Below are positions 5,571 through 48,489 of a DNA stretch of 64,000 nucleotides, piece after piece. Below the pieces are notes generated by a model. It searched no databases and was not told where the DNA came from. It saw nothing but the letters and a program-made list of their open reading frames with translations. The first letter of the stretch is position 1. Every line of letters begins with the position of its first letter. The stretch spans positions 10,257 through 74,256 of the forward strand of contig JAKAKW010000006.1 of NCBI GenBank assembly GCA_021824345.1. The letters run 5' to 3'. The translations under genes and the position numbers were made by a program. This DNA is from a bacterium (GTDB lineage: Bacteria; Patescibacteriota; Minisyncoccia; Phycocordibacterales; UBA9973).

Positions 5571-7390
5571 TTTACCAATTGGTATTTCTCAGATAAGAAC
5601 TTGTTGATTTCGTTCTTTTCTCCTAATGCAAGAAGCTTTCTTTTTTCTTCTAATGAGAAGCTTGGAATTGAAAAATTCTTTACATAGTTCTTTGCAAATG
5701 ATTTAAAGCCACCAGAGTAGTTTTTACTCGTCTTTTTAATGTAAAACCACATTAAGTCTGAATTTAAAACTTTTTCTAGTATTCGGAAATCCTCCTGTTT
5801 CTTAGGATAGATTGCATAACCACAGTAAAAAAGAGTTTCTTCTTCTTCAACTACAACAAAAGAAGGTCTGTTACCCATCATTGGCAATATAATTTTCTTA
5901 CCAAAACCATTTAAACCCTGTGTTCTTCCGTAAGCATACCAAGCTTCATACTTCTTTAACCCTTTATCTCTTAGGTCAAGTTCATTTTTTATAGCACACA
6001 AATAATCGTAGGTTTTTGGAAACCTTGATTTTATGTGTGATTCAGGAAGTATTTTTGCTCTACCCTTGTTCCCATATTCATAAGGATATATTATTCTTTC
6101 CTTGTTATTTTTAAGAGTTTCTAAATCCTTAACCTTATTTGGTTTAATTATCTTTTTTGTGAAATCTCGTTCTATTTGATACGTTTTTCCATTATATTCT
6201 TTTAAGAGGTACTTGTTATCATTGTTATCATTTACTAGAAACAAATCATTATTTAAAGTGGCTAATCCGGTTATAAATTTGTCTACATATTTAAATAATG
6301 GTGAACCAGAATTTTCAATTCTGAATATATTTTCAGCATCTTTTTTTGATAAAAATCTCCATTCTTTTTTGCCCAAGAGAAAGTGGTTTAAATTATCAAA
6401 TTTAAGTTTGCTTAGTTCTTTTATTTTTTCTTTTTTATCAACTAAACTGAACTTAATTTCATCAGCTCCTTTTTTATTCAGTATTGTTATGCAAGTATAA
6501 GTTATTGCTCCTTCAAAAATTTGCCATCCATTAAAATCAACTATTTTCTCTAAATATTTGTTTTTGAATATAAATTCACGTACAAGCTGTGCATTAGAGG
6601 ATGTTAAATAAGTGTTTGGAGTTATGAAACCTATTATCCCTGCACTGTGTGTAATATCTACTGCCAATTCAAAAAAGGGAATATACAAATCTACGTTTCC
6701 AAAATTTGCAGTTTCCCATTTTTTAATATTCTGCCTAACACTAAATCTTAAATTTTTTGTTCTAACGTATGGCGGGTTTCCAATAATATAATTGAAACCA
6801 GAAAAAGATGGAATGTGTTTCTTCCAATTGAAATCTAAACTATCGCCTTCAAATATATTGAATTCAAAATCATTATCTTCTCCGCTTGTAATAGCTAACA
6901 AGGATAAAATTATTTTTGTCCTTAAAACACTATTAGGTAAAATATCTACTCCATATATATATTTTTTAAATATTTCTTTAAATGAAAGGTTAAATTTTTT
7001 ATTTAAAAATTTTGATGCCTCAATCAAGAAAGCTCCGCTGCCACATGCAGGATCACATACTGTGCCCAGATCCCTAACGGTTTCTTGAACAATATATGAG
7101 ACCACTCCCGTTGGGGTATAATATGAACCGTTAACCTTTCTATCTTCCTCATTAACATTTAATTCATATAAACCTTCCAATAATTCAATATCAGGAACAA
7201 TTAATCTAGAATCAAACCAGAAGGTAATTCCTTGATTAATATTTCGTTCAATAATTGATTTAATTAGTTTGTTTTTTACTGCCTTTATTCCAGCTTTTTT
7301 AAGAACATTACTTATCACAAAAGTCTCTACATCCTGGAAAGAGTAGCAGGACAATTCTTTACTGATTTTTATAATGGGATAGTCCATCAT
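5567..7390 (-). CDS. N6-adenine-specific DNA methyltransferase (gamma class; type II/IIG-like with C-terminal target-recognition region)
   Basis: AdoMet motif I VCDPACGSGAFL lies upstream of catalytic motif IV GNPPYV, which is the gamma-class order. An extension of about 300 aa follows. Confidence 0.8.
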   Translation of the reverse strand: MMDYPIIKISKELSCYSFQDVETFVISNVLKKAGIKAVKNKLIKSIIERNINQGITFWFDSRLIVPDIELLEGLYELNVNEEDRKVNGSYYTPTGVVSYIVQETVRDLGTVCDPACGSGAFLIEASKFLNKKFNLSFKEIFKKYIYGVDILPNSVLRTKIILSLLAITSGEDNDFEFNIFEGDSLDFNWKKHIPSFSGFNYIIGNPPYVRTKNLRFSVRQNIKKWETANFGNVDLYIPFFELAVDITHSAGIIGFITPNTYLTSSNAQLVREFIFKNKYLEKIVDFNGWQIFEGAITYTCITILNKKGADEIKFSLVDKKEKIKELSKLKFDNLNHFLLGKKEWRFLSKKDAENIFRIENSGSPLFKYVDKFITGLATLNNDLFLVNDNNDNKYLLKEYNGKTYQIERDFTKKIIKPNKVKDLETLKNNKERIIYPYEYGNKGRAKILPESHIKSRFPKTYDYLCAIKNELDLRDKGLKKYEAWYAYGRTQGLNGFGKKIILPMMGNRPSFVVVEEEETLFYCGYAIYPKKQEDFRILEKVLNSDLMWFYIKKTSKNYSGGFKSFAKNYVKNFSIPSFSLEEKRKLLALGEKNEINKFLSEKYQLVN

Positions 7391-7707
7391 ACAGTTAATT
7401 ATAACTTACTTTTCCTAAAATAGTTAACATATTTATATCCTTATTTCTCAACATAATCTGTTTGTTTTTTATAAAGGTATTTTTATATTTAATATAGTTT
7501 TGTTAAGAAATAGCGAACATTCACAATATCTATTAAAAATATGTTGGAAAATAAAGATACTAATAAATAAATGGGCAATTATCATTGTTTTTGGTTTTTG
7601 GGTTAAAAACCAACTTTTCATCAACTTTGTTTATAAGTTTAAACAAAGTTTTTTCTGTGGGCATAAATTTATGGTTTTTTGGTATAAACCATCTTTTCAC
7701 AGAATTC

Positions 7708-7827
7708 CTAGAACCATTTTATACCTACCTTAAAGGCAATGCTTATTACTAAAATTAAAATGGTTACTAAAAGAATCACAATCCAGTTAAATGCGTTTTT
7801 GAATGATTTGTAGTCTTGGTCATCCAT
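7708..7827 (-). CDS. Candidate 39-aa single-TM peptide (MDDQDYKSFKNAFNWIVILLVTILILVISIAFKVGIKWF), possible type I toxin-like small protein
   Basis: Hand-translated minus-strand ORF ending in TAG. A highly structured region with interleaved inverted repeats lies immediately 5' of it on that strand. Confidence 0.2.
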   Translation of the reverse strand: MDDQDYKSFKNAFNWIVILLVTILILVISIAFKVGIKWF

Positions 7828-8080
7828 AATCTTGATTGATTTAGCTGACCAGAAACCAAAAAGCTCCTAGCCAGACATACAGGTTTCCCTGTAAGGCACG
7901 GTCAGTGCAAACTCTGACTAGGAGTTTTTTACCACTGACCGTGTCTCACATTCACCATGCCTCTATTGCTAAAGGTTTAGGCTACTTTGTATTAAATTGT
8001 ATGTAGTGATTTTACCTCTTTTGCTTGTAAAAACAAAGTAGGTTATTTGTTTTCTTGATTATAGCGTGTAGAATAAGGAC

Positions 8081-8794
8081 ATGAAAGGGGTTAATGAAAC
8101 AAAGAAATATAACAATCTGATTGAATCAGGACTGGAACTATTATCAAAAGCCCAAAGCTATATAGATACTTTTGACCACAACAGAGTGTATGGTCCTTCT
8201 GATTTAGAAGAGGTGAGTTCGTCTTTTGACATAGTAGAGGAATATCATAATTGGGTGAAAAGCATAATTAAATTTTATAAGTCAGATGATGATAAAGATA
8301 AGATTCTTACCTCTTTCTTTAAGGAAGTAGATGGTGTTCCTACTTTGGACTGGCTAGAGGATAATCACTATATGGAAGGTGATCCAATGCCAGCTAGTAT
8401 TGCTACTTCAATTCTAACTGAGGGGAAGAAAAAGCTAGAATATATCAGAAAAATATATGGCACAGAAAATGTTGGTAATGATAAGAAAATAATTCTGCTG
8501 GTAAATAAGAAAACAAATGAAATTACAGTGAAGGATAAAAATCATTTAAAGCATTCCTTCCGCAGGACATATGGAATAAACAAACGTCTTGGATATTTAA
8601 TCAAGATATACAAAACTCCAAAGATTGGTGGGGCTGTTTTAGCAGGTACTCCTAAGTTACAAAACATTAGTAAAGAATTGAAGAAAATCAATGCTGACTT
8701 AATGGAAGATTTGGATTTGCAGGATAATGTGATTATGAATGATAACAACTCCGGCTACTACATAAACCCAAAATACATTTTTGAATTTACTTAA
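8081..8794 (+). CDS. Hypothetical protein (island cargo)
   Basis: 237 aa AT-rich ORF with no recognisable motif. Confidence 0.45.
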   Translation: MKGVNETKKYNNLIESGLELLSKAQSYIDTFDHNRVYGPSDLEEVSSSFDIVEEYHNWVKSIIKFYKSDDDKDKILTSFFKEVDGVPTLDWLEDNHYMEGDPMPASIATSILTEGKKKLEYIRKIYGTENVGNDKKIILLVNKKTNEITVKDKNHLKHSFRRTYGINKRLGYLIKIYKTPKIGGAVLAGTPKLQNISKELKKINADLMEDLDLQDNVIMNDNNSGYYINPKYIFEFT

Positions 8795-8927
8795 ACAAGA
8801 TTTCTTAGTAAACCTTTTGTTGTTGTTAACCTAAACTAAACAAACCTTACCTACAAAGGTTTGTTTTCATTTTAACCCTACATAATTATAACTATTTTTG
8901 CGTACTTCTTTTTTCTAAAGTTAGGAT

Positions 8928-9128
8928 GTGAAGCCAGAAATAGAAAAAATAATTGAACTCTTGCAACAGATAGAACCAGAAGCAAGCAAGGAAGAATTAG
9001 AGGCAAAAGCCCAGAATATTTGGGAAATTGCCCTTTTCTTGGTTCAGCTGAAGCTTAGAGAGCACTCTAAACAGCCAAAACCAATGGATTTGAGGACTTT
9101 GCCAGAAAATAGGGGGAATTCACCTTAG
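8928..9128 (+). CDS. Small hypothetical protein upstream of the serine recombinase (possible recombination directionality factor)
   Basis: 66 aa ORF. Its position immediately 5' of the integrase gene is the only argument for the function. Confidence 0.2.
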   Translation: MKPEIEKIIELLQQIEPEASKEELEAKAQNIWEIALFLVQLKLREHSKQPKPMDLRTLPENRGNSP

Positions 9129-9238
9129 TTATGGAAAGTCGTGCTTATAACAAATATTACAAGTTTTCGGATTCTAATTATTAGTAATGAGATTTTGAGA
9201 TTATAAAATTAAGAGGTTTACTTAAAGTAATAAGATAT

Positions 9239-10786
9239 ATGAAGAACAAAAAAAATATTAGCAAGCCCAATAATGACATCATCTACATCAGGGTAAGCTC
9301 AAAAGAACAGATTGAGAATTTTTCTTTGGACAATCAAGAAAAGTTCTGCAGAGAGTTTTGCAGGAGAACTGAACATAATGTATTGGCAGTTTTCAGAGAG
9401 GAAGGAGAATCAGCCAAGACAGCAGCCAGAACTCAACTGCAAAAAATGATAAGGTTTTGTGAGGTAAACAAAAAGCAGGTTGATAGGGTTGTAATTTACA
9501 AGGTAGATAGATTCTTCAGGAATGCTGGAGAGCACCTTGCTCTAAGAGCCACATTAAGAAAATTAAATATTTCTCTTGTGTCCGTTACTGAAGCATTTGA
9601 TGATACTCCAAGTGGCAAACTTCAGGAAACAATGTTGGCAGCCTTTGCCCAATTTGACAATGATGTCCGATCTCAAAGGACATATGAAGGCATGAGAGCA
9701 AGAGCCTTGAAAGGATTATGGCCAAATATTGCACCATGGGGCTATGTTAATACCAAAGATAAGTCAGGCAATAAAATTATTGCACCTCATCCTGAAAGAG
9801 CTCCTGTTGTGAAAATGATTTTTCAGGCTTATGCCACTGGAAAGTATAGTTTTAAGGAAATAGCATCTATGGCAAACAAATCTGGGCAGAAATCAAGGCA
9901 TGGATTGAGAATGAGCAAACAATTGGTTGTAAAAATAATTAAGAACCCAATTTACTATGGAAGAATTGCCATTCAGAAGCTTGATGTTGATGTGCAGGGA
10001 AGCCATGAGCCAATAGTTTCTAAGGAGTTATATGATGAAGCAAACTCTGGCAAAAGAAGTATTCATGGTCGGAAAATGCCCAGGAACAGGGATAGTCCCA
10101 CTTTTCCCTTGCGTGGGATTAAGTGCGGTGGTTGCTACAAAAGCATAACTGGTGGAAAGACCAGAAGTAAAACAGGCAGGTATTATCAATACTATGGCTG
10201 TTTTTGTGGTGATTGTTCCAAAAGGACCGCCATTCCCAAAGAGGATTTTGAGAATGAGTTTACAAAGTTCCTCTTTAAAATTACTCCTAGTGATAAACAC
10301 CTTAATGTATTAGGGGAGGCAATTAAGCTTGCCCACAAGAGTGAATTTAACTACATTCTGAATGAGGAAAAAAGATTGAACAACAGAATGGAGGAATTAA
10401 AGGAAAGGAAGGACAAGCTGTTGGATTTGAGAATTGAAGGGAAAATAAATGATGAAGATTTTACTCCTGCCAATGATAAATTGAAATTACAGATCGGAGA
10501 AGTTGAAAAAGAATTGAGTGAGCTGTCTTCTCCTGAACTTGAAATAGATAATGTGGTTGATTCCGGAATAAGTTTTATAAAGAATTTTCCTTATATATGG
10601 AGAAAACTGCATCCAAAGGATTTGAGAGTTTTAAGAAACCTTCTTTTCATGGGAAATCTTGTTTATCATTATCCAACTATCAAAACCCCTGAAGCATCCT
10701 GTATCTACAAGGTAAAACCTGAATTATTGGATGATAAGAATCGTTTTGTGACCTTACCGGGAATCGAACCCGGATTACTTGCTTGA
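9239..10786 (+). CDS. Large serine recombinase (site-specific integrase/resolvase family)
   Basis: N-terminal resolvase catalytic motif IIYIRVSSKEQ. A recombinase domain, a zinc-ribbon (CGGCYKS...YGCFCGDC) and a C-terminal coiled coil follow. The 515 aa length is typical of large serine recombinases, and the 3' end overlaps tRNA-Glu. Confidence 0.85.
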   Translation: MKNKKNISKPNNDIIYIRVSSKEQIENFSLDNQEKFCREFCRRTEHNVLAVFREEGESAKTAARTQLQKMIRFCEVNKKQVDRVVIYKVDRFFRNAGEHLALRATLRKLNISLVSVTEAFDDTPSGKLQETMLAAFAQFDNDVRSQRTYEGMRARALKGLWPNIAPWGYVNTKDKSGNKIIAPHPERAPVVKMIFQAYATGKYSFKEIASMANKSGQKSRHGLRMSKQLVVKIIKNPIYYGRIAIQKLDVDVQGSHEPIVSKELYDEANSGKRSIHGRKMPRNRDSPTFPLRGIKCGGCYKSITGGKTRSKTGRYYQYYGCFCGDCSKRTAIPKEDFENEFTKFLFKITPSDKHLNVLGEAIKLAHKSEFNYILNEEKRLNNRMEELKERKDKLLDLRIEGKINDEDFTPANDKLKLQIGEVEKELSELSSPELEIDNVVDSGISFIKNFPYIWRKLHPKDLRVLRNLLFMGNLVYHYPTIKTPEASCIYKVKPELLDDKNRFVTLPGIEPGLLA

Positions 10787-10820
10787 GAAGCAAGTGTCCT
10801 AACCGTTAGACGATAAGGCC
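10749..10820 (-). tRNA. tRNA-Glu (anticodon CTC)
   Basis: Cloverleaf folded by hand. The acceptor GGCCTTA/TAAGGTC pairs with a G-T wobble at 2-71 (a D-stem G-T wobble as well). D arm GTCT/GGAC, anticodon stem CTTGC/GCAAG with loop TTCTCAA, T arm CCGGG-TTCGATT-CCCGG. No encoded CCA. Confidence 0.8.
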
Positions 10821-11495
10821 GTCGGGAAAATATTAGCATTTATTTGGACAATAAAAAAGCACGTCAGCCGTCGGGACGTGCAATGAAAATTCATACATAC
10901 AGAACACCTGCCTTGCGCCGCTATCACCACCTCCTTTCACTTTGACGGACGGCTTCAGTGAACTTCAGGTAAAGATTATATTAACAGTAATGAAAGTCAA
11001 GAAAATCTGTTGAAAAATAAAACGGCCCTGAACTAGTGGCATCTAGTCAGGGCTTTAATTATTTGCCACTTAAGTGGCGAGGATACAATACACCCTAAAA
11101 TTTTGTTTTTTCAATTATGTCAGGACAAAACGCTAGGGAGGCTTTGATTCCATTGGGATAGAATCATCACCATTTGAGAAAGTTTTCCAGGGATTGTACT
11201 CGCCCTGAAAGGAGGTGACAGGAACGTACGGAATATAAATCATTCTCACCTCTCAATTTTTAAAATTTTAAAAATAACTTTAATTCTGAGCCCGACTTGT
11301 GTCGAACCTTTTGTTACTCTAGGCAACATAACAGCATTTTATGACGTCTAGCGCCTAGGTTAAGAATGCTTTCCGATTTGCTATTTAGGAAATACTTACT
11401 TTTTTTTATTTTAAAATAACAAGTCAGGCTCGGGTATTACCTTACAACTTCCACAAGAAGTGTCAATACAAACAGTGGAAAACTTCTGAAAGGCA

Positions 11496-11548
11496 AAGGC
11501 CGGCCTCCGACCCAGGTCGGAGGCCGGCCGTCTTTGTTTTCTCTTTTA
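11496..11548. terminator. Bidirectional rho-independent terminator (14-bp GC stem GGCCGGCCTCCGAC/GTCGGAGGCCGGCC, T-run on the plus strand)
   Basis: Perfect hairpin at 11498-11529 followed by GTCTTTGTTTTCTCTTTT. It lies just downstream of the rmuC stop on the minus strand. Confidence 0.6.
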
Positions 11549-11555
11549 ATTTCCG

Positions 11556-12623
11556 CTAATCTTCCGCCTTCGGCTTTTCCAGGGCGATGGAAGACAGCTC
11601 TGGCGAAGAGCCGGCGATTTTAAGAATGTCTTTGTCTATCTTCTTGAGTTCCTTGCCCGAAGCGTTGTAGTGGTTTACCACAGTGCTAAGCGAACTGCCC
11701 AGCTTCCCATGGTATTCGTCATAGGCTTTCAAATGCCGGCCGAGGTCTTCCACTTTCTTGATGATTTCCTTGGCGGACTCTTCTATGTGCAAGGCTTTCA
11801 GTCCCTGAAGCACAGTCTGAAGGTACGCCAAGAAAGAGGTGGGGGAAGTGATGATCACTTTGTATTTGCCGGCAGCGCGCTCTATCAAGCTCTCCGCGTT
11901 TTCTTCGGAGGTGTTTCCCCCGATCTTGTTTATTAAAAGATCGTAGTAAATCGCCTCGTGCGGGATGAACATAAAAGCAAAATCCGTGGTGCCTTGCTGG
12001 GGTTGGACGTATTTTGCCGTCTCGGCAATCCTATTTTTCAAATCGTTTACGAAAACGGTTTCTAGTTTCTTCTTTTCAGCCGGATCGCGTTCCTCTACCA
12101 TACGGTTGTAGTTTTCCAGAGAGAACTTTGAATCAATCGGTATGATTTTGTCTTTCACGAATACCGCGGCGTCCACGATTGTGCCGTCGGGAAATCCGTA
12201 TTGCATCTGATAGCTTCCGGCCGGCAGGACGTTTTTGAGCACCGTCTCCAAGTAATATTCTCCCAGGATTCCGCGCTGTTTGGGATTCTTAAGAATATCT
12301 TGCAGATTCTGCAATTGGTCGGCGAAGGAAATCACTTGCTTGTTTGTCTCGTCCAAGCGAGTAAGGCGCTCGGTGATGTCTCGAATGATTTTGTTGGATT
12401 CAGAAGAATGGAATTTTAGACTCTCGTTCATCTGCTTGCTTGTTTCGCCGATCTTGGAATCAACCGTCCGGGACAAGTCGTTTAATTGCTGGAGGATCAG
12501 TTGCAGGCCGGTGTCATTTTCCGTTTTTCCCGGCGTATTTTTATTGCCAAGAAAAAGCATAACAGCCAGTCCTCCCGCCATTACCGCCAATATTCCTATT
12601 ATTATCCACAACGCCGTTTCCAT
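11556..12623 (-). CDS. rmuC: DNA recombination protein RmuC
   Basis: N-terminal TM anchor (ALWIIIGILAVMAGGLAVMLF), a long coiled coil, and a C-terminal RmuC nuclease-like region (FAFMFIPHEAIYYDL). Confidence 0.8.
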   Translation of the reverse strand: METALWIIIGILAVMAGGLAVMLFLGNKNTPGKTENDTGLQLILQQLNDLSRTVDSKIGETSKQMNESLKFHSSESNKIIRDITERLTRLDETNKQVISFADQLQNLQDILKNPKQRGILGEYYLETVLKNVLPAGSYQMQYGFPDGTIVDAAVFVKDKIIPIDSKFSLENYNRMVEERDPAEKKKLETVFVNDLKNRIAETAKYVQPQQGTTDFAFMFIPHEAIYYDLLINKIGGNTSEENAESLIERAAGKYKVIITSPTSFLAYLQTVLQGLKALHIEESAKEIIKKVEDLGRHLKAYDEYHGKLGSSLSTVVNHYNASGKELKKIDKDILKIAGSSPELSSIALEKPKAED

Positions 12624-12675
12624 TTTTGTTTATTATGACACTTTTTTGAAAGTGGGAAGCCTGGCTTTCCACAGG

Positions 12676-13395
12676 CTATTTTTGCAAATAATGCCGCAGG
12701 GTAAAGATCCAGTCTTCCTCTTCCTGCTCGCTTTTTTCTTTTTCACCCAGGAGCCACTCCAGATACGGCCGGTCGGTTTCTGCCACTTCTTCCATTTTCA
12801 TGCCTCGGTACTTTCCGAAATTCATCCGGCGGAAAATGGAAGGCTGGGAGGAAATCTCAACCATTTTTTGCAAGGCTTCCTCTTCGGACAAGTCATATTG
12901 CTCCATTATTTTCTTGCGCAAGCGCTCAAAAAGTTTTTCCAAAACCAGGACATCGCCCATGGCGTCATGAGCCGTGGCGTCAATGTCAATATCCAAAGCA
13001 TAGCGCAGATATTGCAGTTTGTACTGCGAAAGTTTTTCCTCCGGATCCAGATACCGGGCCACCCGCAGAGTGCAGATGAAGTTCTTCGGCGCGATATCCT
13101 CTTTCTTAATGATCATAAGGTCGAACAAAGCGTTGTGCGCCACAGCTACGGCATTCGGGTCCTCGAATCTTTCCTTGATTTCCGCATATTCATCGCTCTC
13201 CTTGAACGGAATCTTGTCTTCCACCATTTTGTTGGTGATATGATGCACGGCGCTCGCTTCCGGAGGAATGCGGACCGGCGGCTTGTACAGTTCCACAAAG
13301 CTTTCCTTGCCGTCCTTGTACGCCAATTGGCACAGGAAATCCGCTTCGGTATTGCCGGTAGTCTCAGTATCAAAGAAGATTATTTTCGCAGGCAT
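12676..13395 (-). CDS. DEDDh 3'-5' exonuclease domain protein (DnaQ/epsilon-like) with C-terminal extension
   Basis: Exo I motif FFDTETTG, Exo II HNALFDL, and Exo III with HDAMGD. Confidence 0.8.
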   Translation of the reverse strand: MPAKIIFFDTETTGNTEADFLCQLAYKDGKESFVELYKPPVRIPPEASAVHHITNKMVEDKIPFKESDEYAEIKERFEDPNAVAVAHNALFDLMIIKKEDIAPKNFICTLRVARYLDPEEKLSQYKLQYLRYALDIDIDATAHDAMGDVLVLEKLFERLRKKIMEQYDLSEEEALQKMVEISSQPSIFRRMNFGKYRGMKMEEVAETDRPYLEWLLGEKEKSEQEEEDWIFTLRHYLQK

Positions 13396-19132: not shown

Positions 19133-20857
19133 ATGCCGGCGAGCAAGACTCCTAAATTTGACGCGCTGATTGATAAAATTTTGGACGATCTCGTTCAGCA
19201 TGAGCGTGTTTGCGCGGACTGCGGCAAAGAATTCAAAATAGAGGCGGAAGATATTACGTTTCTAAAAATGTTCAGAGTTCCACCTCCGAAACTTTGCCCA
19301 CAGTGCAGGCAAAGGCGTCGGCTTTCTTTCGTAAACTATTCAAATATATATAAACGCAAATGCGATGTGCCCGGACATAGTGAAACAATGATTTCCCAGA
19401 CTGCCCCGGTGATGCCCTGGGTCACATATGACCACGATACTTACTATTCCGATTCCTGGGACCCTTTCTCTTATGGAATGGATATAAAGACAGGCGAGCC
19501 GTTCTTGGGGCAATTCCTTGAACTTTTGAGAGTGGTGCCTCAGCCAGGAGTCCGGCGCGGTTCTGAATCGCCGAACAGCGATTACAGTTTCTACGGGAAG
19601 CATATGAAGGATTGCTATTATGTCTTCGGAGGACGCCGTTCGGAGGACATCATGTACGGCTCGGCAATTTATGACTCAAGACATATAGTTGATTCATATT
19701 TTGTACGAAACGTGGAACTTTCCTACGACAATGTGAGCACAAACAATTGCCACAAATGCAAACATGCGTATTTTTCTTCCGATTGTATTGATTGTGATTT
19801 CATTTATGACTGCCGCAATTGCCAGAATTGTTTCGGGTGCGTGAACCTGCGAAACAAGAACTACTGTTGGTATAATGAACAGCTTTCCAAGGAAGAATTT
19901 GAAAAGAGAAAGAAAGAATCAGGCCTGAGTAGGCGATCATCTTCTATAAAATATTCCAAGGAGTTTTGGAAATTAGTAAAGAATAATCCGGTCAGGGCGT
20001 CCAGAGTGTTTCAGTCGGAAAACGTTTCTGGTAACGATATCAAGCGTTGTCGAGACTGCCGGGATGTTTTTCAGATTGAAGATTCTGAAAATGTCAGGCA
20101 TTCAGGGTTTGTGCTGGTTTTTGTGAAAGATTCCATGGACATGAGCCTAAGCGGGCATGTGGAACGGATTTATGACAGTCAGAATGTCGGTACGACCGAT
20201 GTGAAATTTTCCTTTGGCGTGAAGGGGTCCTCGGAATGTGAATATTCGATGAACCTGAATGATTGCCAAAATTGCTTTGGATGTATTGGATTAAGGAGCG
20301 CCTCGTATAGCATATTTAATAAAAAGTATTCTCCAGAAGAATACTGGAAAAAGCTGGATGACATAAAGTCTGACATGTTGGAGCGAGGAGAATACGGCGA
20401 GTTCTTTTCCATGCCCTTTTCTCCTATGGCGTATAACAGCTCTCTGGCGCATATTCTTTATCCCATGAGTGAAGAAGAAGCGAAAAAACGCGGGCTGTAT
20501 TGGCAGGAAGAAACAGACGTAGATACGAAAGGACTAAACGCTACAAAGGCGGATGAACTTCCGGACGATATAGCGAATGCGAACGCTGACGTATGTAAAT
20601 TGGCAGTAATCGGGGAAGTTTCAGGCAAGCCGTTTCGGATAACCCAAAGAGAGCTTGAGTTTTATAAGCGGGAAAATGTTCCGCTTCCAACTGATACTCC
20701 ATATCAGAGAATACTGGATAGGTTTGCCATATTGAACAATTTTCAGACATTTTCAGAAAAATGTTTTTCCTGCGGCAAGACAATTGATTCTTCCTATCGC
20801 ATCTCGGAAGGCTGGAAGCCGTATTGTGAGGAATGCTTCAGAGAAGAAGTGTTATAA
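19133..20857 (+). CDS. Cysteine-rich multi-zinc-ribbon protein, paralog 1 of 3 (uncharacterised family)
   Basis: 574 aa. N- and C-terminal CxxC...CPxCR zinc-ribbon-like modules and internal CQNCFGC..LR...Y..N..YS.EE repeats. Clearly paralogous to the ORFs at 40301 and 42058. It starts 2 nt after the fba stop. Confidence 0.6.
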   Translation: MPASKTPKFDALIDKILDDLVQHERVCADCGKEFKIEAEDITFLKMFRVPPPKLCPQCRQRRRLSFVNYSNIYKRKCDVPGHSETMISQTAPVMPWVTYDHDTYYSDSWDPFSYGMDIKTGEPFLGQFLELLRVVPQPGVRRGSESPNSDYSFYGKHMKDCYYVFGGRRSEDIMYGSAIYDSRHIVDSYFVRNVELSYDNVSTNNCHKCKHAYFSSDCIDCDFIYDCRNCQNCFGCVNLRNKNYCWYNEQLSKEEFEKRKKESGLSRRSSSIKYSKEFWKLVKNNPVRASRVFQSENVSGNDIKRCRDCRDVFQIEDSENVRHSGFVLVFVKDSMDMSLSGHVERIYDSQNVGTTDVKFSFGVKGSSECEYSMNLNDCQNCFGCIGLRSASYSIFNKKYSPEEYWKKLDDIKSDMLERGEYGEFFSMPFSPMAYNSSLAHILYPMSEEEAKKRGLYWQEETDVDTKGLNATKADELPDDIANANADVCKLAVIGEVSGKPFRITQRELEFYKRENVPLPTDTPYQRILDRFAILNNFQTFSEKCFSCGKTIDSSYRISEGWKPYCEECFREEVL

Positions 20858-34730: not shown

Positions 34731-36722
34731 TTAAAGCAAATCCTCCGGGTCAACATTGACGGTATAGTCCGGCGGAAGAGCGAGCAAGCGGAAAAGCAGG
34801 CCTTGATCCAGCGTCGCGTTTGGCACTAGCTCCGGCAAAGACCAGCTTTCAGGGCGCAATTTTATGAGCGCATTTGTCATATACTTGTCCTTCACTTTTG
34901 GCACGAATCCGCTGAAAATTTCCGGTTGGTATCCCAGGAAAGTGTCACCCAAAATTTTTCTGGCGTCGGCAGTTTTCCTCTTGTCCCCGGCATAGCTTAC
35001 CTTGATGAATCTTCGATACGGCGGATATCCCAGGTTCATGCGTTCGTCAAGCTCGTTGCGCACGAATTCCGCCAGGTTGTCGCTTCGCACAGCTCGCATC
35101 TCCGGGGAATCTTCGTTTTTTGTTTCTATGATCAATGTTTTTTCTGTTTTGGACATTATCGATACCAAAAGCTGGATGATTTTTTCGCTCATTCTGAAGT
35201 TCGGGATGCTCCATAAGGAATCAAATGAGGCGATGATGGACGCCGGCACCGAATTGTTCAGGTAGAAAAGCGCTAGTTCTGTTCCGACGAGTATGGCTCC
35301 CTTGCTCTCCTCAAATTCCTTCGCAGTTTTTTCCGCCTGCTTGCCCGTTTTTACCGTTTCCCTGTCCAGCTTGAATATTTTTACCCGTTTCTTCTTTCCC
35401 CCGAAAATATTGCGGAGTTCTTCTTCCACAGTATCTGTCCCGATGCCGAGCGGCGCCAGATTCCATCCACCGCAATTCGGACATACTGTATCCGGGCTCT
35501 TTTCGCTCCGGCAGCGATTGCATACAAACATTCGCTTGTTTCCGCTTTTTGAAACGTACAGTACCACCGGAGAAAGGCAGTGATCGCAAGAAAGGGATTC
35601 ACCGCAGTCCCGGCAGACGGTAAATGTGGCCAAGCCTTTTCTCAGGGAAAAAACGAAGACATTTTTTCCATGTTCAACGGACTCTTTTATTTGTCTGACG
35701 CTTCTATCCGAAAGGATTCTGAATTTTGCGCCCGCCGCCGCGCCTGATGAATTTTCTTCTGTATCGGCGCCATCCTTCCTTTCGCCCCTTTGGGAAATGA
35801 CCAAATCTCCTTCAAAATTTGTGCGAAAAGACAAGGGGCGGATTTCCGTCCAGCCGGTAACCTCCTTCTTTGCGATGCTTTCAAATCGAAGCATGGAATC
35901 TCCCAAAATGAATTTGGCCCCGGCTTTTCCCGCGAATATTTCGGCAAATATGCGCATATCTAGATAGGGTCTTGCCAGAGTTTTGTAAGCCGTACTGTTT
36001 TCATGTTCCACCACAATTGCGCCTAGGCGCGGAATGGGCACGGACAAATATGGTGCTGTGCCGAAAATCAAAAGGGGATGGCTTGAGGAAACAATTTTTT
36101 CGTAATTTTCCAGCAATTTTTTCGGCTTTGCTCCTCCGTGCATGGAAAAGGAGAATTTCTCAATGCCGCGCGAAAGGAAAGAAGAAAAAATTTCAATGTC
36201 CCGCTCTGTGGGCAAGCAGATAAAAACAGACTTCTTTTCGGCAAAGGAGCTCCGCACCATATTCTTGTAAAAGGAAATCCTGTCATCAAACGGCGCCTGG
36301 AATATCATTTTTTCCGGCCGGATATTTTGAGAACTATCCGGCTTGTCGGCGTTTTCGGGACTTTTCCCGATTTTTGCCAAGGCATCGTAGTTTTCCCGAA
36401 AAATGGCTGGAAGAAGAGCGGCCGCAACGGAACTTTTGCGCGAAGCGAAGTATTCGGCAGATCGAAAAACGGCATTTAAAAATTCTTCCCGCCACACCGA
36501 GGGTCCCTTGTCTTCGGTTATTTTTTTCAGATTGAATGCCGCCCCCTTCAGGCCCGCTTTCAGAATACTTGCCTCCTCTACGGATACTGCCAGGCTCAGA
36601 GCCTTCTTGCCTCTTATGGGCGTTTCAACGATATTCCCGACCGCGATATTTTTTGAGGTGAAATATGTCAAATCGTCCCGGAACATGCCTTTTTTGAGCG
36701 GAATTACGGTGACGATTTTCAT
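34731..36722 (-). CDS. priA: Primosomal protein N' (PriA)-like helicase, apparently lacking a canonical Walker A motif
   Basis: N-terminal 3'-DNA-binding domain, motif Ia-like FICLPTERD, motif II-like VVEHENS, and the PriA Cys-rich zinc region (CRDCGESLSCDHC...CNRCRS...CPNCGG). No GxGKT motif was found. Confidence 0.65.
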   Translation of the reverse strand: MKIVTVIPLKKGMFRDDLTYFTSKNIAVGNIVETPIRGKKALSLAVSVEEASILKAGLKGAAFNLKKITEDKGPSVWREEFLNAVFRSAEYFASRKSSVAAALLPAIFRENYDALAKIGKSPENADKPDSSQNIRPEKMIFQAPFDDRISFYKNMVRSSFAEKKSVFICLPTERDIEIFSSFLSRGIEKFSFSMHGGAKPKKLLENYEKIVSSSHPLLIFGTAPYLSVPIPRLGAIVVEHENSTAYKTLARPYLDMRIFAEIFAGKAGAKFILGDSMLRFESIAKKEVTGWTEIRPLSFRTNFEGDLVISQRGERKDGADTEENSSGAAAGAKFRILSDRSVRQIKESVEHGKNVFVFSLRKGLATFTVCRDCGESLSCDHCLSPVVLYVSKSGNKRMFVCNRCRSEKSPDTVCPNCGGWNLAPLGIGTDTVEEELRNIFGGKKKRVKIFKLDRETVKTGKQAEKTAKEFEESKGAILVGTELALFYLNNSVPASIIASFDSLWSIPNFRMSEKIIQLLVSIMSKTEKTLIIETKNEDSPEMRAVRSDNLAEFVRNELDERMNLGYPPYRRFIKVSYAGDKRKTADARKILGDTFLGYQPEIFSGFVPKVKDKYMTNALIKLRPESWSLPELVPNATLDQGLLFRLLALPPDYTVNVDPEDLL

Positions 36723-40300: not shown

Positions 40301-42055
40301 ATGACGACAGAAACCCAGCAATGCCAGAATTGTAAAAATGATTTCACCATTGAACCGGAAGACTTCGGTTTCTACGAAAAAATCAAAGTGCCTCCGCCCA
40401 CTTGGTGCCCGGAGTGTCGCTTGGTTCGACGCTTGATCTGGCGCAATGAGCGCGAGCTGTATAAAAGAAAATGCTCAATGTGCGGGAAGGACATGATTTC
40501 CATTTGCGGTCCATTTAATACTTCGACTGTATATTGCAAAGATTGCTGGTGGAGCGACAAATGGGATCCGATGTCGTACGGTGCTGAATATGATTTTGGA
40601 AAAGATTTTTTTACTCAATTCCAAGACCTCATGAGAAAAGTTCCCTTAATTAGCCTGTTCACCGGGGGAACGCAAGTGAACTCAGATTATACGAACTTTA
40701 CTGCCAGTAACCGGGACAGTTATTTGGTTTTTGGCGGAAATGAAAATGAACAAGTGACTTATGCCAAGAATGCCTCATATTCAAAAAACTCCTCAGATAT
40801 TTTGAGCGGGGATAAGCTGGAATTATGCTATGAGGACATTGAATGTATTAATTCTTACCGTCTATCTTTTAGCCGGCAATGCGAGAATTGTACGGACTCC
40901 GTCTTTCTTTTTGACTGCAGAAACTGCCAAAACTGTTTTGCCTGCGTCAATTTGCGCAACAAAAGTTATTGCATTTGGAACACGCAGTACAGTAGAGAAG
41001 ACTACCTGAGAAAGATAGAGGAAATGAAACTGGGCAGCAATTCGTCGCTGCAGAAAACAAAGGCGCAATTTAAGGATTTTTCAGAAAAGGCAATTTGCAA
41101 ATATGCGCATATGCTGAACACAAAAGGCTCAACGGGCAACAATCAGGAAAATACCAGGAATTGCAGATCGTGCTTTGACGTGTTCGGCGACGGGTCGGAG
41201 AACAGCAAATATTCCCATTATGTAGTCAAAGGGATAAGCGATTCTTATGATAATTATGGCGTGAAAAGGGCTGAAAGGGTATATGAGACTATTGCCATAG
41301 GATTCGAAATGAACGAGAATTCCGATTATTATTTTGATTTTTTCGTAAAAGGGTGCAGCCGGGCATATTATTCCAGCAACTGCATATCCTGCGACGATAT
41401 ATTCGGATGCGCCAATTTGCGGAAAAAGCAATATTGCATTTTAAATCGCCAGTATTCCAAAGAAGAGTACGAAGCACTTTTGCCGAAAATAATAAAGCAG
41501 ATGGGCGATATGCCCTATACGGACAAGACAGGGAAAGTATATAGATTTGGCGAATTTTTCCCTCCTGAATTTTCTCCTTTTGCGTACAACGAGGCTATCG
41601 TGCAGGAATATTTTCCACTGGACGAAAAGAGAGCGAGTGAACGTGGTTTTGCCTGGAGAAAAAGAGAGGAGCGTGATTATAAGATTGACATTGAATATGA
41701 AAAGCTCCCTGACGACATAAAAGATTCTGCCGACGATATTGCCGGCAAAGTTATTGAATGCGCACACAAAGGAGAGTGTGATGAGCAATGTACGGAAGCG
41801 TTTAAGATTCTTCCCAAAGAACTAGTCTTTTATAGACAAATTGGTGTTCCATTGCCGCGTCTTTGCCCTAATTGCCGGCATTACGAAAGACAGAAGCAAA
41901 GGAATCCTATGAGGCTTTGGCATCGCTCCTGCATGTGTGACAAGCAGAATCATGGTCACCAAGGTGCTTGCCCCAACATTTTTGAGACCAGCTATGCTCC
42001 CGAACGGCCCGAAAAAATATATTGCGAAGAGTGCTACAACAAAGAGGTATATTAG
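40301..42055 (+). CDS. Cysteine-rich multi-zinc-ribbon protein, paralog 2 of 3 (uncharacterised family)
   Basis: 584 aa, same architecture as the ORFs at 19133 and 42058. The termini are nearly identical in motif (QCQNCKxxFxIxPEDFxFYEKIKVPPPTWCPECR ... PLPxLCPNCRxYER...EKIYCEECYNKEVY). Confidence 0.6.
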   Translation: MTTETQQCQNCKNDFTIEPEDFGFYEKIKVPPPTWCPECRLVRRLIWRNERELYKRKCSMCGKDMISICGPFNTSTVYCKDCWWSDKWDPMSYGAEYDFGKDFFTQFQDLMRKVPLISLFTGGTQVNSDYTNFTASNRDSYLVFGGNENEQVTYAKNASYSKNSSDILSGDKLELCYEDIECINSYRLSFSRQCENCTDSVFLFDCRNCQNCFACVNLRNKSYCIWNTQYSREDYLRKIEEMKLGSNSSLQKTKAQFKDFSEKAICKYAHMLNTKGSTGNNQENTRNCRSCFDVFGDGSENSKYSHYVVKGISDSYDNYGVKRAERVYETIAIGFEMNENSDYYFDFFVKGCSRAYYSSNCISCDDIFGCANLRKKQYCILNRQYSKEEYEALLPKIIKQMGDMPYTDKTGKVYRFGEFFPPEFSPFAYNEAIVQEYFPLDEKRASERGFAWRKREERDYKIDIEYEKLPDDIKDSADDIAGKVIECAHKGECDEQCTEAFKILPKELVFYRQIGVPLPRLCPNCRHYERQKQRNPMRLWHRSCMCDKQNHGHQGACPNIFETSYAPERPEKIYCEECYNKEVY

Positions 42056-42057
42056 CC

Positions 42058-43797
42058 ATGCCGCCCGAGACCAAACAATGCCAAAATTGCAAGGGGAGCT
42101 TCATCATTGACCCCGAAGATTTCTCATTTTACGAAAAAATCAAAGTGCCTCCGCCGACATGGTGTCCGGAATGCCGGATGCAAAGGCGATTGCGATTCAG
42201 AAATGAAAGAGAATTGTATCACTTTACTTGCGGACTCTGCGGGAAGAGGGGTATTTCAATGTACAAACCGGAATCTCCCTTTCCCATATATTGCGTGAAC
42301 TGCTGGTATTCTGACAAATGGGATGAGCTCTCTTGCGGTGCGGATTATGATTTTTCCAAGCCATTTTTTGAACAAATGAACGATCTGTTTAAAAAAGTTC
42401 CGCGAGCCAATATTTTTCTGAGGAATATAGTGAACGGGGAATATTCAAACATCAACGGAGAAAGTAAAAACGTGTATCTTACGTATTCGGCCAACGGATC
42501 GGAAAATGCGTATTACTCCAAAGCCGTAGATAAATCCAAAGGCGTTTTTGATTGTTTGAATACCGTAAGCTGCGGAAACTGCTACGAAGTCGTACGCGGA
42601 GAAAATAATTACAACTGCAGCTTTTTGACTTTGTCTCGCAATTGCATAGACTCTTCTTTTCTTTACGATTGCTCGGATTGCAGCAACTGCTTTTTATGCG
42701 CTGGATTGTGCAGTAAGAAATTCTGCATTGAAAACAAGCAATATTCCGAATCTGAATATAACGACAAGGTGAAGCACATGAATACGAGAAGCAGGGCAGG
42801 AGTAAAAAAAGTTAAAGAAAAGTGGACAGAACTTATTCTTAAGTTTCCGCATAGATACGCATATATAATGCGGTCTGTGAACAGCACCGGGGACGATTTG
42901 GAAGGCGATAAAAATGTAAAATTATCTTTTGAAATATATAACAGCGAAAATACCAAGTTCCTCCTTCGATGCTTTGGAGCCAAGGATTCATACGACGGAA
43001 ATAATATTGCGAACTCCGAAATGGTGTACGAGTTTGCGGGCGGGGGCGCGAATGACAGCTCGCGCCTCTTGTTCTCCAGCAATGGAATAAAAAACCTAAG
43101 AAATGCCGAATATACAGATTACTGTTTCTCTTCTTCAGACGTATTCGGCGGAATATCCTTAAGAGGGAAGAAATATTGCATTTTGAACAGGCAATATTCA
43201 GAGCAAGAATACAAAAGATTGCTGCCGAAGGTGATTCAGCACATGAATAACATGCCGTACAAAGACGCAAGCGGGAATGTTTACAAATACGGGGAATTTT
43301 TCCCGCCTGAACTTTCTACGTTTTGTTACAACGAGTCTTTAGCTCAGGAGTATTTCACTTTAACCAAAGATGAAGCGGAAAAACGCGGATATTCATGGAA
43401 GGACAGGGAAGAGAGAAATCTTGACATTAATATCAAATACGAAGATATCCCGGATGATATCAAGAATGTGAATGAAGAAATTGTCGGCAAGGTCATTGAA
43501 TGCGGGCACAGGGGCGCATGCAATGAAAGATGTACAGGGGCTTTCAAAATAATCCAAGAAGAATTTTACTTTTATATAAAAGCTGGAATTCCTTTGCCTG
43601 GCCTCTGCCCTAATTGCCGGTATTATGAAAGGCTAAAACAAAAAAACCCTATAAAGCTCTGGCACAGGGCATGCATGTGCGAAAACATGAGTCATGGCCA
43701 CAAGGAAAAATGCCAGAACGAGTTTGAGACTCCATATGCCCCTGAGCGGCCCGAAAAAATATATTGCGAAGAGTGCTATAACAAAGAAGTTTATTAG
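42058..43797 (+). CDS. Cysteine-rich multi-zinc-ribbon protein, paralog 3 of 3 (tandem with paralog 2)
   Basis: The ATG lies 2 nt after the stop of paralog 2. The first 60 and last 80 residues are about 70% identical to paralog 2. Confidence 0.6.
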   Translation: MPPETKQCQNCKGSFIIDPEDFSFYEKIKVPPPTWCPECRMQRRLRFRNERELYHFTCGLCGKRGISMYKPESPFPIYCVNCWYSDKWDELSCGADYDFSKPFFEQMNDLFKKVPRANIFLRNIVNGEYSNINGESKNVYLTYSANGSENAYYSKAVDKSKGVFDCLNTVSCGNCYEVVRGENNYNCSFLTLSRNCIDSSFLYDCSDCSNCFLCAGLCSKKFCIENKQYSESEYNDKVKHMNTRSRAGVKKVKEKWTELILKFPHRYAYIMRSVNSTGDDLEGDKNVKLSFEIYNSENTKFLLRCFGAKDSYDGNNIANSEMVYEFAGGGANDSSRLLFSSNGIKNLRNAEYTDYCFSSSDVFGGISLRGKKYCILNRQYSEQEYKRLLPKVIQHMNNMPYKDASGNVYKYGEFFPPELSTFCYNESLAQEYFTLTKDEAEKRGYSWKDREERNLDINIKYEDIPDDIKNVNEEIVGKVIECGHRGACNERCTGAFKIIQEEFYFYIKAGIPLPGLCPNCRYYERLKQKNPIKLWHRACMCENMSHGHKEKCQNEFETPYAPERPEKIYCEECYNKEVY

Positions 43798-46974: not shown

Positions 46975-48489
46975 TTATATGCCGCGCAGTATCTTAATAT
47001 CCGCGCCGATTTTATTGAACCGTTCGGCGATTTCCTCGTATCCGCGATTGATCATGTATACGTTTCGAAGCACTGAAGTGCCCGGCGCGGCCAGCATGGC
47101 TATCATAATTACCATGGAGGGCCGAAGAGCCGGCGGACACACCACCTGGGCGGATTTGAAATCCGTTTTTCCGGTAATATACACGCGGTGCGGGTCGGCC
47201 AGGGTGACGTTCGCTCCCAGGCGGGTAAGCTCTGCCAGATATATGGCTCGATTTTCATAAAACCAGTCGTGAATCAAAGTCGTACCCTCCGCCCGAGCGG
47301 CAATGGGAGCAAAAAAAGGTAAATTGTCGATATTTATCCCCGGGAAAGGATTGGCATGCAGTTTTTCCTCCGGCGCTTTTAACTTGCTTGGAAAAATTTC
47401 AAGATCAACCAATTTTGTGCGGTTATTCTTGAAAAGATATTGTTTAAGCACTTTGTATTTCAGCCCCATTTTTTTCAGCTTGTATAATTCCAAGGTCAAA
47501 AAGTCAATCGGGCATCTTCGAATGATCAGATGCGAATCGGTGGCGATTGCGGCTGAAATAAACATCATAGACTCAATCGGATCCTCGCTGTTCCAATATT
47601 CCGCATTCTTTTTAATTTCCTTTAACCCGTGCACTTTTAAGGTGCCGGTGCCTATACCTTCTATTTTCACACCCAGGGTTTCCAAAAAGTAGCAAATCTC
47701 CTGTACCATATAATTTCCGCTGGCGCATTCAATCACCGTTTCGCCCGGCGTCAAAGCGGCGGCCATAAGGACGTTTTCAGTGGCGGTATCCCCGGATTCG
47801 TACATTACAATTCCCGCAGGCTTGATCTTCTCCGCCGAAACCTCATAGCTGTTGTTGGTAGTTCTAATTTTAATGCCCATTTCCTCCAATGCGTACTTGT
47901 GGGCGCTTATTGTGCGCTTTCCCAGCTTGCATCCTTCGGCATGGGGCAAGGAAAAGCTTTTTAAATAGTGCACCAGGGGCCCCATAAACATTATTATTGA
48001 ACGCGTCTTAAGAGAGGATTCCACGTTAATATTTTTCAACTTGAATGCCTTGGGAGGAGTGACTTCTAGGCAGTTCTTGCCGGTCCATTCCACTTTTACT
48101 CCGATGCTTTCCAAAATTTCGATAACTCGGTATACCTCCTCAATATGAGCAATGCCGTGCAAAACGGTTTTCCCGCGGTTAAGAAGGGAAGCGCACAAGA
48201 GTCCCACTGATCCGTTCTTGGAATATGCGGTGGTAATTTCTCCGTGCAGTTTTTTCCCGCCGTTAATTTCAAAATCCAATGATGTTCCGACCGATACCAC
48301 ATTTCTTTCCAGCACTTCGCCCACTTTCTGCAAGATATCCGTGGTGAAGTTCTGCTGGCCCTTTTCCATGCGGGCCACCGCGCTCTGGGAAGTGCCCAAG
48401 GCCCTGGCAAAATCCCCCTGGGTCATGTCCTTGCGTTCGCGCAATTGCTTGATAAAACTGCCTATCTCTTTTTGTGATGAGTTTTTCAT
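46975..48489 (-). CDS. murA: XRE-family HTH domain fused to UDP-N-acetylglucosamine 1-carboxyvinyltransferase (MurA)
   Basis: N-terminal residues about 8-65 form an XRE HTH (IKQLRERKDMTQGDFARALGTSQSAVARMEKGQ). The rest is an EPT-fold MurA (LHGEITTAYSKNGSVGLL..., a candidate active-site Cys in AEGCKLGKRT by inference, and ...RGYEEIAERFNKIGADIKILRG). The reading frame is continuous. Confidence 0.75.
   Translation of the reverse strand: MKNSSQKEIGSFIKQLRERKDMTQGDFARALGTSQSAVARMEKGQQNFTTDILQKVGEVLERNVVSVGTSLDFEINGGKKLHGEITTAYSKNGSVGLLCASLLNRGKTVLHGIAHIEEVYRVIEILESIGVKVEWTGKNCLEVTPPKAFKLKNINVESSLKTRSIIMFMGPLVHYLKSFSLPHAEGCKLGKRTISAHKYALEEMGIKIRTTNNSYEVSAEKIKPAGIVMYESGDTATENVLMAAALTPGETVIECASGNYMVQEICYFLETLGVKIEGIGTGTLKVHGLKEIKKNAEYWNSEDPIESMMFISAAIATDSHLIIRRCPIDFLTLELYKLKKMGLKYKVLKQYLFKNNRTKLVDLEIFPSKLKAPEEKLHANPFPGINIDNLPFFAPIAARAEGTTLIHDWFYENRAIYLAELTRLGANVTLADPHRVYITGKTDFKSAQVVCPPALRPSMVIMIAMLAAPGTSVLRNVYMINRGYEEIAERFNKIGADIKILRGI

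Follow-up and report, generated by a model that had tools for sequence, protein, structure and literature searches.

Patescibacterial proteins with cysteine-rich terminal modules and a predicted duplicated beta-solenoid, and their genomic linkage to putative soluble VirD4-like ATPases

Patescibacteria account for much of bacterial diversity and have genomes of only ~1 Mb, yet they retain many diverged copies of a 1.7-kb gene family that carries no annotation. What do these genes do? The question is raised by a stretch of 64,000 nucleotides (contig JAKAKW010000006.1 of assembly GCA_021824345.1, positions 10,257 to 74,256 of the forward strand), referred to here as the window, in which three such genes, A, B and C, are found. 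A sequence-only reading of the window had described them as a three-member paralog family of cysteine-rich proteins of about 585 aa that can be aligned from end to end. The open reading frames (ORFs) and alignments of this study bear this out: the proteins of A and B share 50% identity and those of A and C 35%, with all three alignable over their whole length. The analysis below suggests that they are soluble proteins built from putative zinc modules and a split beta-solenoid, and that in related genomes the family is encoded beside a pair of VirD4-like ATPases, for which its members may act as clients or adaptors.

Gene A (40301..42055, + strand; ORF list) encodes a full-length family member of 584 aa with 36 cysteines, and its protein has an exact match (P0001) on ENA and NCBI contigs. 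Its TAG stop codon (42053-42055) is followed exactly 2 nt downstream by the ATG of gene B at 42058, and an AGAGG Shine-Dalgarno sequence for B lies within the 3' end of A; translational coupling of the two genes is likely. Gene B (42058..43797, + strand), the tandem paralog of A, encodes 579 aa according to its ORF and to comparison with homologs, which begin at the equivalent of ATG 42058 (MPxETKxC). The 2-nt gap between the genes had been reported correctly, whereas the 591 aa then given for B relied on a TTG at 42022 that is located within gene A. ATG 42058 is taken as the true start because the N-terminal zinc module is conserved. The public gene call for B (L001:11959-13497, corresponding to window position 42259) starts ~67 codons late; the resulting 512-aa product lacks the conserved first zinc site, and late-start annotation errors of this kind are likely to recur in the family. 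Gene C (19133..20857, + strand; ORF list) encodes 574 aa and belongs to a distinct conserved subfamily.

At the DNA level, a three-way alignment of the first 400 nt (5') of A, B and C gives a mean column identity of 72%, and the best direct repeat that A and B share covers 147 nt at 70%. As the sequence-only reading had maintained, the copies are not assembly duplicates, because their DNA clearly differs. A mobile element was likewise ruled out: there are neither near-identical DNA copies nor flanking terminal repeats, and the DNA repeat comparison found no long flanking repeats. A segment of ~30 nt is almost identical in A (40370-40400) and B (42127-42157), TT[C/T]TACGAAAAAATCAAAGTGCCTCCGCC, which encodes FYEKIKVPPP. 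It contrasts with the ~70% identity elsewhere and could reflect local gene conversion or a strong constraint on the segment. A promoter and terminator scan around A and B gave no signal above the shuffled expectation.

The architecture was derived from an AlphaFold2 model of the gene A product, which reached a predicted local distance difference test score (pLDDT) of 88.6 and a predicted template modelling score of 0.90 with an alignment of 143 sequences (an earlier run with 53 sequences gave a pLDDT of 78.8). In the model, an N-terminal zinc module is followed by solenoid unit 1, a helix, solenoid unit 2, a second helix, the linker and a C-terminal zinc module, and each solenoid unit is closed by a cysteine-rich cap with a helix after it. 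In gene A the N-terminal zinc module occupies 40301..40570 (residues 1-90), the beta-solenoid units, defined by the model and by hhalign, 40667..41029 (unit 1, residues 123-243) and 41114..41494 (unit 2, residues 272-398), the alpha/beta linker domain 41495..41740 (residues 399-480, pLDDT >90) and the C-terminal zinc module 41741..42052 (residues 481-584), all on the + strand, as are the parts of B and C. The corresponding parts of gene B are the N-terminal module at 42058-42327, solenoid units at 42424-42783 and 42868-43236, the linker at 43237-43482 and the C-terminal module at 43483-43794; those of gene C, which has a 21-residue N-terminal extension, lie at 19133-19465, 19562-19924, 20009-20368, 20369-20593 and 20594-20854. 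The N-terminal (CxxC...CPxCR), internal and C-terminal motifs quoted in the earlier reading are all present. The internal one, FGCxNLRxKxYCIxNxQYSxEEY, occurs twice in A, as cap motif 1 within unit 1 (nt 40937-41005, residues 213-235) and cap motif 2 within unit 2 (nt 41402-41470, residues 368-390). The linker domain of A, ~80 residues long and devoid of cysteine, carries the motif YGEFFPxExSPFAYNE; conservation along gene A peaks here, at residues 411-430, and the domain found no match in any library.

Two pairs of parts within the protein are related to each other. Unit 1 (123-243) and unit 2 (272-398) align in profile-profile comparison with a probability of 100% (E=2.9e-39), and the N-terminal (1-90) and C-terminal (481-584) modules do so with a hhalign probability of 99.5% (E=7.4e-23) and are also homologous by BLASTP (E=1e-12), in agreement with the resemblance of the terminal ribbons noted before. 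The architecture thus goes back to two separate internal duplications. The pseudo-twofold symmetry proposed earlier is accordingly only approximate, with a zinc-solenoid-solenoid-linker-zinc order, and what had been called a central low-complexity region corresponds to two homologous beta-solenoid units that are confidently folded in the model.

The proteins contain 26-36 cysteines each, ~6% of residues. Conservation of these cysteines was scored over the 143 sequences, split into A-like and C-like subfamilies. N-terminal site 1 (C8/C11/C36/C39) and the C-terminal site (C544/C557/C575/C578) are 100% conserved in both subfamilies. N-terminal site 2, which in A and B reads C58-x2-C61-x17-C79-x2-C82, is present in only ~42% of A-like members, and none (0%) of the C-like members keep C61, C79 and C82. 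The C-terminal module, with its motif CPNCR...YCEECYNKEVY, has extra ligands in the A-like subfamily (C487/H489/C493/C497/C522/C525/H527) that are 98-100% conserved there. In C-like members these are mostly conserved at 0-2%, with position 487 being Cys in 29% and position 522 being His in 36%, and gene C itself is without them. The caps also carry cysteines, which in A are C197/C206/C209/C212/C215(/C224) in unit 1 and C361/C370/C379 in unit 2; C197, C206, C212, C215 and C370 are conserved in at least 92% and C209 and C361 in at least 80%. Domains of the CxxC-x17-CxxC class have been found to bind zinc by inductively coupled plasma mass spectrometry (ICP-MS) in small proteins of M. mazei (PMC12704099). 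Given the ligand geometry and these ICP-MS results on the same domain class, we infer that the cysteine sites of the family bind zinc.

A hydropathy scan of the three proteins and of 164 homologs detected neither a hydrophobic or membrane segment nor a signal peptide. Over 19 residues the hydropathy reaches a maximum of 0.71-0.88 in A, B and C and stays below 1.6 in the homologs, and the first CxxC starts as early as residue 8. The three proteins are therefore predicted to be soluble and of cytoplasmic type, and a protein of the Sec-secreted, lipoprotein or surface type was ruled out. Among the roles suggested by the sequence-only reading, a binding scaffold fits best, and a Sec-secreted or surface factor is disfavoured for this reason.

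Is this a known family in disguise? With A, B, C and 53 members, searches of Pfam, NCBIfam, PADLOC and PHROGs gave matches below threshold only, which agrees with the failure of the earlier reading to name a family. The sub-threshold matches were limited to zinc-finger models over the N-terminal ribbons: B scored 20.1 bits against PF23477 (zf_Tbcl_2; threshold 27) and 15.6 against TIGR04272 (cutoff 36), A matched neither of these two, C scored 15.1 bits against PF13451 (zf_Tbcl; gathering threshold 24), and PF13451 appeared below threshold in 21 of the 53 members (best E 9e-4). The spacing C-x2-C-x17-C-x2-C at residues 58-82 of A and B is exactly that of the CxxC-x17-CxxC class (TIGR04272/PF23477), and site 1 follows the F-x-I-x3-D-x2-FY...P-x-P-x2-CPxCR pattern of zf_Tbcl; the M. 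mazei proteins A00184 and A01980 belong to this CxxC-x17-CxxC/zf_Tbcl treble-clef class. Unlike that class, which comprises stand-alone domains of ~40 aa or small proteins, the family has two binuclear modules capping a solenoid protein of 580 aa, and its x17 site is degenerate in most members.

Searches of the PDB with single sequences and with a profile gave only a chance match to a histidine-rich glycoprotein and a weak LIM-like match, in which the last 45 residues resembled a second LIM finger (E=0.35). The family spacing, C522-x2-C525-x15-H541-x2-C544-x1-C546-x10-C557-x17-C575-x2-C578, departs from the LIM consensus that was used for comparison (C-x2-C-x16-23-H-x2-C-x2-C-x2-C-x16-21-C-x2-(C/H/D)), and no Pfam LIM match was obtained, so that LIM membership was rejected; double zinc fingers of the LIM/PHD type are not known in bacteria in this form. 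Foldseek with the model gave no match at E ≤ 1e-3, with probabilities of at most 0.15. The beta-solenoids that were compared include the left-handed beta-helix (LbH) acyltransferases LpxA, LpxD and GlmU, the Lolium ice-binding protein 3ult, the insect antifreeze proteins 1ezg and 1m8n, the YadA and UspA1 heads and phi29 gp12. As judged from the model, the likeness is that of a generic solenoid fold and is shared equally by adhesins, antifreeze proteins and a phage appendage. In comparison with these proteins, the family shows no sequence or profile similarity, appears to be cytoplasmic rather than secreted, and has its solenoid split into two homologous, cysteine-capped units with a zinc module at each end.

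The building blocks, treble-clef or zinc-ribbon modules and a beta-solenoid, are thus familiar. What is new relative to the libraries, the solved structures and the literature, in which no description of the family was found, is their combination and the cysteine-lined, capped and duplicated solenoid. Equally unmatched are the restriction to Patescibacteria, the tandem arrays, and the coupling to paired orphan VirD4-like ATPases in a heat-shock operon, which are described below. The whole was rated as new both as a family and as a system because membership in zf_Tbcl/TIGR04272, LIM, the hexapeptide transferases and the ferredoxins fails in each case at the profile level.

How widespread is the family? 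A database clustered at 90% contained 7,170 matches. At 50% identity the family counts 5,109 clusters, of which 2,238 match at E ≤ 1e-30. Members are nearly all 540-600 aa long and share a common architecture. Wherever a source has an informative name, it belongs to Patescibacteria of the Parcubacteria type; the lineages named are Nomura-, Staskawicz-, Giovannoni-, Jorgensen-, Wolfe-, Kaiser-, Sung-, Niyogi- and Liptonbacteria, Paceibacterota, Minisyncoccia and RAAC4_OD1_1. One 268-kb contig labelled Burkholderiales (L029, JAMPXW010000002.1) carries four family copies together with X1 (the ATPase gene described below), dnaJ, cysS and typical Patescibacterial synteny; it is probably mis-binned or mislabelled rather than a real occurrence beyond Patescibacteria. 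The phage collections INPHARED and IMG/VR contained no match to the family, and a phage or viral origin was ruled out on this basis.

The genomic setting was surveyed in 79 family-seeded loci from GTDB species representatives. By tblastn with A, B and C, most of them hold two or more copies within 8 kb on either side. The largest array has 10 copies in 17.7 kb (L013), and other examples have 8 (L011), 6 (L067) and 5 (L059 and L079). The three copies in the window, which had been thought conspicuous, are modest in number for a family with up to 10 members in tandem in related genomes, and the same is true of the tandem pair A-B. Copies within arrays are only 30-50% identical to the window proteins, whereas orthologs of C are 55-68% and those of A 59-65% identical to them. 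From these values the paralogs, which are 30-50% identical to each other, are judged to be old and individually conserved, and since each paralog has its own orthologs at 55-68%, the copies appear to be functionally differentiated rather than redundant. In a related genome the syntenic locus, of the order rseP-family member-M24-ddl, holds a single family copy; another ortholog of A is flanked by ftsW and murG and has three further copies upstream of it.

Clustering of the neighbours in the 79 loci revealed a recurrent partner, designated X1. It is present in 29 of them, often directly upstream of a family copy and on the same strand. X1 matches the Pfam models TrwB_AAD_bind (9e-8), TraG-D_C, T4SS-DNA_transf and DUF87, the TrwB structure 1e9r (E=9e-6) and, in NCBIfam, the VirD4-like CD1115 family, and is thus predicted to be a divergent VirD4/TraD/TrwB-like ATPase. 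No membrane anchor was found in X1. Two forms exist, X1a of ~500 aa and X1b of 620-830 aa, and the latter consists of the ATPase, a C-terminal CxxC-x17-CxxC ribbon (47.8 bits against TIGR04272, above the cutoff of 36) and a long disordered tail. X1b also includes an all-alpha domain. In the X1b tail a short conserved motif, LAxLGIEF, was observed (L004:2566-4749; L002:5904-7904; L059:1878-4376), and the extreme C terminus is also conserved, with EVPEDVLxRILE in some; by their sequence these look like docking motifs.

A reciprocal search was made with 80 X1-seeded loci from Joint Genome Institute (JGI) metagenomes. The family was present in 62 of the 80, and of the 57 loci that span at least 8 kb, 52 carry it; in 55 X1-seeded loci the gap between X1 and the family gene was below 1.2 kb. 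The typical order, with FAM denoting a family gene, is grpE-[FAM]-cutA-(PaaX-like regulator)-dnaK-X1b-FAM(0-3 copies)-X1a-dnaJ-[FAM]. In many Patescibacteria (loci L081-L160; for example L087, L090 and L136), 3-6 genes comprising X1b, FAM and X1a are inserted between dnaK and dnaJ. X1a is 74-93% identical across the metagenome loci, an unusually high conservation that suggests a core function. Further recurrent orders are X1-cutA-FAM-FAM-X1 and secDF-c10-c11-c13-X1-FAM-FAM, and in another one X1 and an M24 peptidase gene precede four FAM copies. The linkage therefore recurs in at least three arrangements and extends beyond one inherited block. The co-occurrence of CysRS, arginase and an AI-2E transporter is regarded as passive synteny within a single conserved block. 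The secD/F block (L154:4949-7953; also L002, L014, L018 and L079) contains secD/F, c10, c11, c13, X1 and FAM, in which c10 encodes a protein with Sigma70_r4 and HARE-HTH domains, c11 a Trp-rich membrane protein of 460 aa without Pfam match and c13 a single-pass membrane protein of 173 aa; c11 and c13 might supply the membrane partners that the soluble ATPase lacks.

VirD4-like proteins of this kind have been noticed in a recent survey, in which 2,918 Patescibacteria genomes yielded 5,713 VirD4-like coupling proteins; of these, only 148 lie near virB4 (PMC12102498). Its authors suggested in 2025 that these proteins have been exapted; the survey mentions no cysteine-rich partner (PMC12102498).

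These observations point to a tentative assignment, plausible enough to be preferred here, in which the family members are zinc-stabilised binding proteins that serve as clients or specificity adaptors of the soluble VirD4-like ATPases X1a and X1b. The cysteine sites would bind zinc and keep a thin solenoid rigid, the solenoid surfaces would provide paralog-specific binding, and docking onto a shared partner would be the task of the terminal zinc modules and the linker. This partner would most likely be the soluble, hexameric VirD4/TraD-like ATPase pair X1a and X1b, because it is co-encoded with the family in related genomes; X1b carries a CxxC-x17-CxxC ribbon of the class that is also seen in the family. 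An ATP-driven machine for remodelling or translocation, co-expressed with DnaK, DnaJ and GrpE, may then use the family members interchangeably as its clients or specificity adaptors, and the three copies in the window may be dispersed members inserted into other housekeeping operons. A bolder form of the proposal, possible rather than probable, is that the family and X1a/X1b constitute an unrecognised machine widespread in Patescibacteria, in which coupling ATPases were exapted into the grpE-dnaK-dnaJ operon and the paralogs act as interchangeable cargo or specificity subunits, for protein remodelling or for effector delivery to host cells.

Several observations weigh against the client or adaptor proposal. 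Homologs of X1, dnaK and dnaJ were not found in the window, where the family copies adjoin rseP and an M24 peptidase (A and B) and fba (C). Orthologs of A lie between ftsW and murG, and many members are physically unlinked to the ATPase. The X1-seeded loci are closely related, as the 74-93% identity of X1a indicates, so that the counts obtained from them are phylogenetically non-independent, and in 12 of the 42 loci that have both ATPases the space between the two holds no family copy. Conservation is fairly even along the protein, and a picture of variable surfaces and conserved ends is only weakly visible in the sequence. Finally, gene adjacency is not the same as interaction.

Could the family instead be exported? 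Coupling proteins serve as receptors for substrates, and the genes of effectors often lie beside theirs, as with VirD4 and effectors carrying XVIPCD or BID domains. Family members might accordingly be effectors that are recognised by the VirD4-like ATPases, passed to the Patescibacterial type IV secretion system (T4SS) and delivered onto or into the host, and the paralog arrays would represent an effector repertoire. The arrangement has much in common with systems of type IV coupling proteins (T4CPs) and their substrates (VirD4 with XVIPCD or BID effectors; TraD/TrwB with a relaxase), in that an ATPase is encoded beside multi-copy, signal-less proteins with conserved terminal domains. The family has no Sec signal, its copy number differs between genomes, and the neighbouring DnaK and DnaJ could hold cargo in a secretion-competent state. 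In addition, the Patescibacterial T4SS, which has no relaxases, seems to have been repurposed, and Saccharimonadia require it for epibiotic growth (PMC12102498). Unlike the known T4CP systems, however, the X1 ATPases are predicted to be soluble and without the membrane anchor of true coupling proteins, form a conserved pair, and are located within grpE-dnaK-dnaJ and not in a cluster of T4SS or conjugation genes; a relaxase is absent, and the family shows no recognisable secretion signal. Genetic linkage to a coupling protein is found for the family as a whole but not for the three window copies, and there are no T4SS genes in the window or within 10 kb on either side. The C terminus is modelled as a folded zinc ribbon and not as a disordered or charged tail, which argues against a classical signal, and with at least four tight Cys4 sites the proteins would be poor substrates for a channel that depends on unfolding. 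Their uniform length and architecture, together with the 55-68% identity of orthologs, are housekeeping-like rather than effector-like. The scarcity of Patescibacterial T4CPs near virB4 and the finding that the T4CP is non-essential in Ca. S. epibionticum (PMC12102498) also speak against export, which is considered unlikely.

It is quite unlikely, too, that the proteins are stand-alone zinc-finger regulators or binders, with terminal zinc modules that bind DNA, RNA or another protein, and work independently of X1, the adjacency to the ATPases and chaperones being inherited synteny. The location of many copies, including all three in the window, in unrelated core operons is in line with this reading. 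The isoelectric points of 5.9-7.0 and the net charge of the terminal modules (~0 to +2) are not strongly basic like those of nucleic-acid binders, however, and the recurrence of the X1 linkage in several distinct gene orders is at odds with simple inheritance.

The abundance of cysteine raises the question of a metal or redox protein, in which ~30 Cys/His residues would bind Fe-S clusters or buffer Zn or Cu for storage, metal chaperoning or redox sensing, with cutA and cysS as related functions. The 26-36 cysteines per protein, the CxxCxxCxxC run at residues 206-215 and the neighbouring CutA1, found at 7 of the 79 loci seeded with the family and at additional loci seeded with X1, are in line with such a role; in the window, no homologs of CutA or related proteins were found. 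As only ~6% of a folded 580-aa protein, cysteine does not reach the level seen in metallothioneins, and bulk buffering hardly explains why many diverged 1.7-kb paralogs are kept in streamlined genomes. Ferredoxin membership was rejected: C206-x2-C209-x2-C212-x2-C215 is without a following Pro and does not conform to CxxCxxCxxxCP, and the Fer4 profile gave no match even at E ≤ 1. A metal or redox function is thus improbable. An LbH acyltransferase-type enzyme acting on cell-wall precursors, as hinted by the occasional neighbours mraY, ftsW, murG and ddl, is highly improbable, with no Hexapep (PF00132) match at any threshold, by which hexapeptide acyltransferase membership was rejected, Foldseek probabilities of at most 0.15, a likeness shared equally with other solenoids, and no conserved catalytic His or acidic constellation identified.

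Because many diverged copies are retained in genomes of ~1 Mb, the function is likely to be central to Patescibacteria biology. The family has neither a Pfam model nor a structural relative. The linkage to X1 provides the first concrete, testable partner for the ~5,700 orphan VirD4-like ATPases of the survey (PMC12102498). If a client, adaptor or cargo role is true, it would bear on the proteome upkeep or the host interaction of these obligate symbionts. The predicted fold, for its part, would be a new cytoplasmic way of building a thin solenoid, with zinc staples instead of disulfides or calcium.

In the window itself, the core-gene context reported by the sequence-only reading was found again: fba (PF01116) precedes gene C, and the M50 peptidase gene rseP precedes gene A. 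A small mobile or defence island interrupts the core genes at 5567-10786. It encodes a fused restriction-modification protein of the N6_Mtase/Eco57I type (type IIG-like; 607 aa, - strand) and a large serine recombinase of 515 aa (Resolvase and Recombinase domains), with several small ORFs without Pfam matches between and before them. At 34731-36722 (- strand), between a TP_methylase gene and mreB, lies a gene for a 663-aa protein without Pfam match, whose position is kept in the related genome L164 (651 aa). The gene at 46975-48489 (- strand) encodes 504 aa, in which an N-terminal helix-turn-helix (HTH) domain (HTH_3/HTH_31) is fused to an enzyme of the EPSP_synthase fold (MurA/AroA-type). The fusion is unusual; L163 has it too, whereas the enzyme of L164 has 446 aa and no HTH domain. 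Downstream of the family member in the related genome L164, ddl (10651-13011) encodes 786 aa with two complete D-Ala-D-Ala ligase units in tandem, whereas the ddl of the window encodes a single unit of 353 aa.

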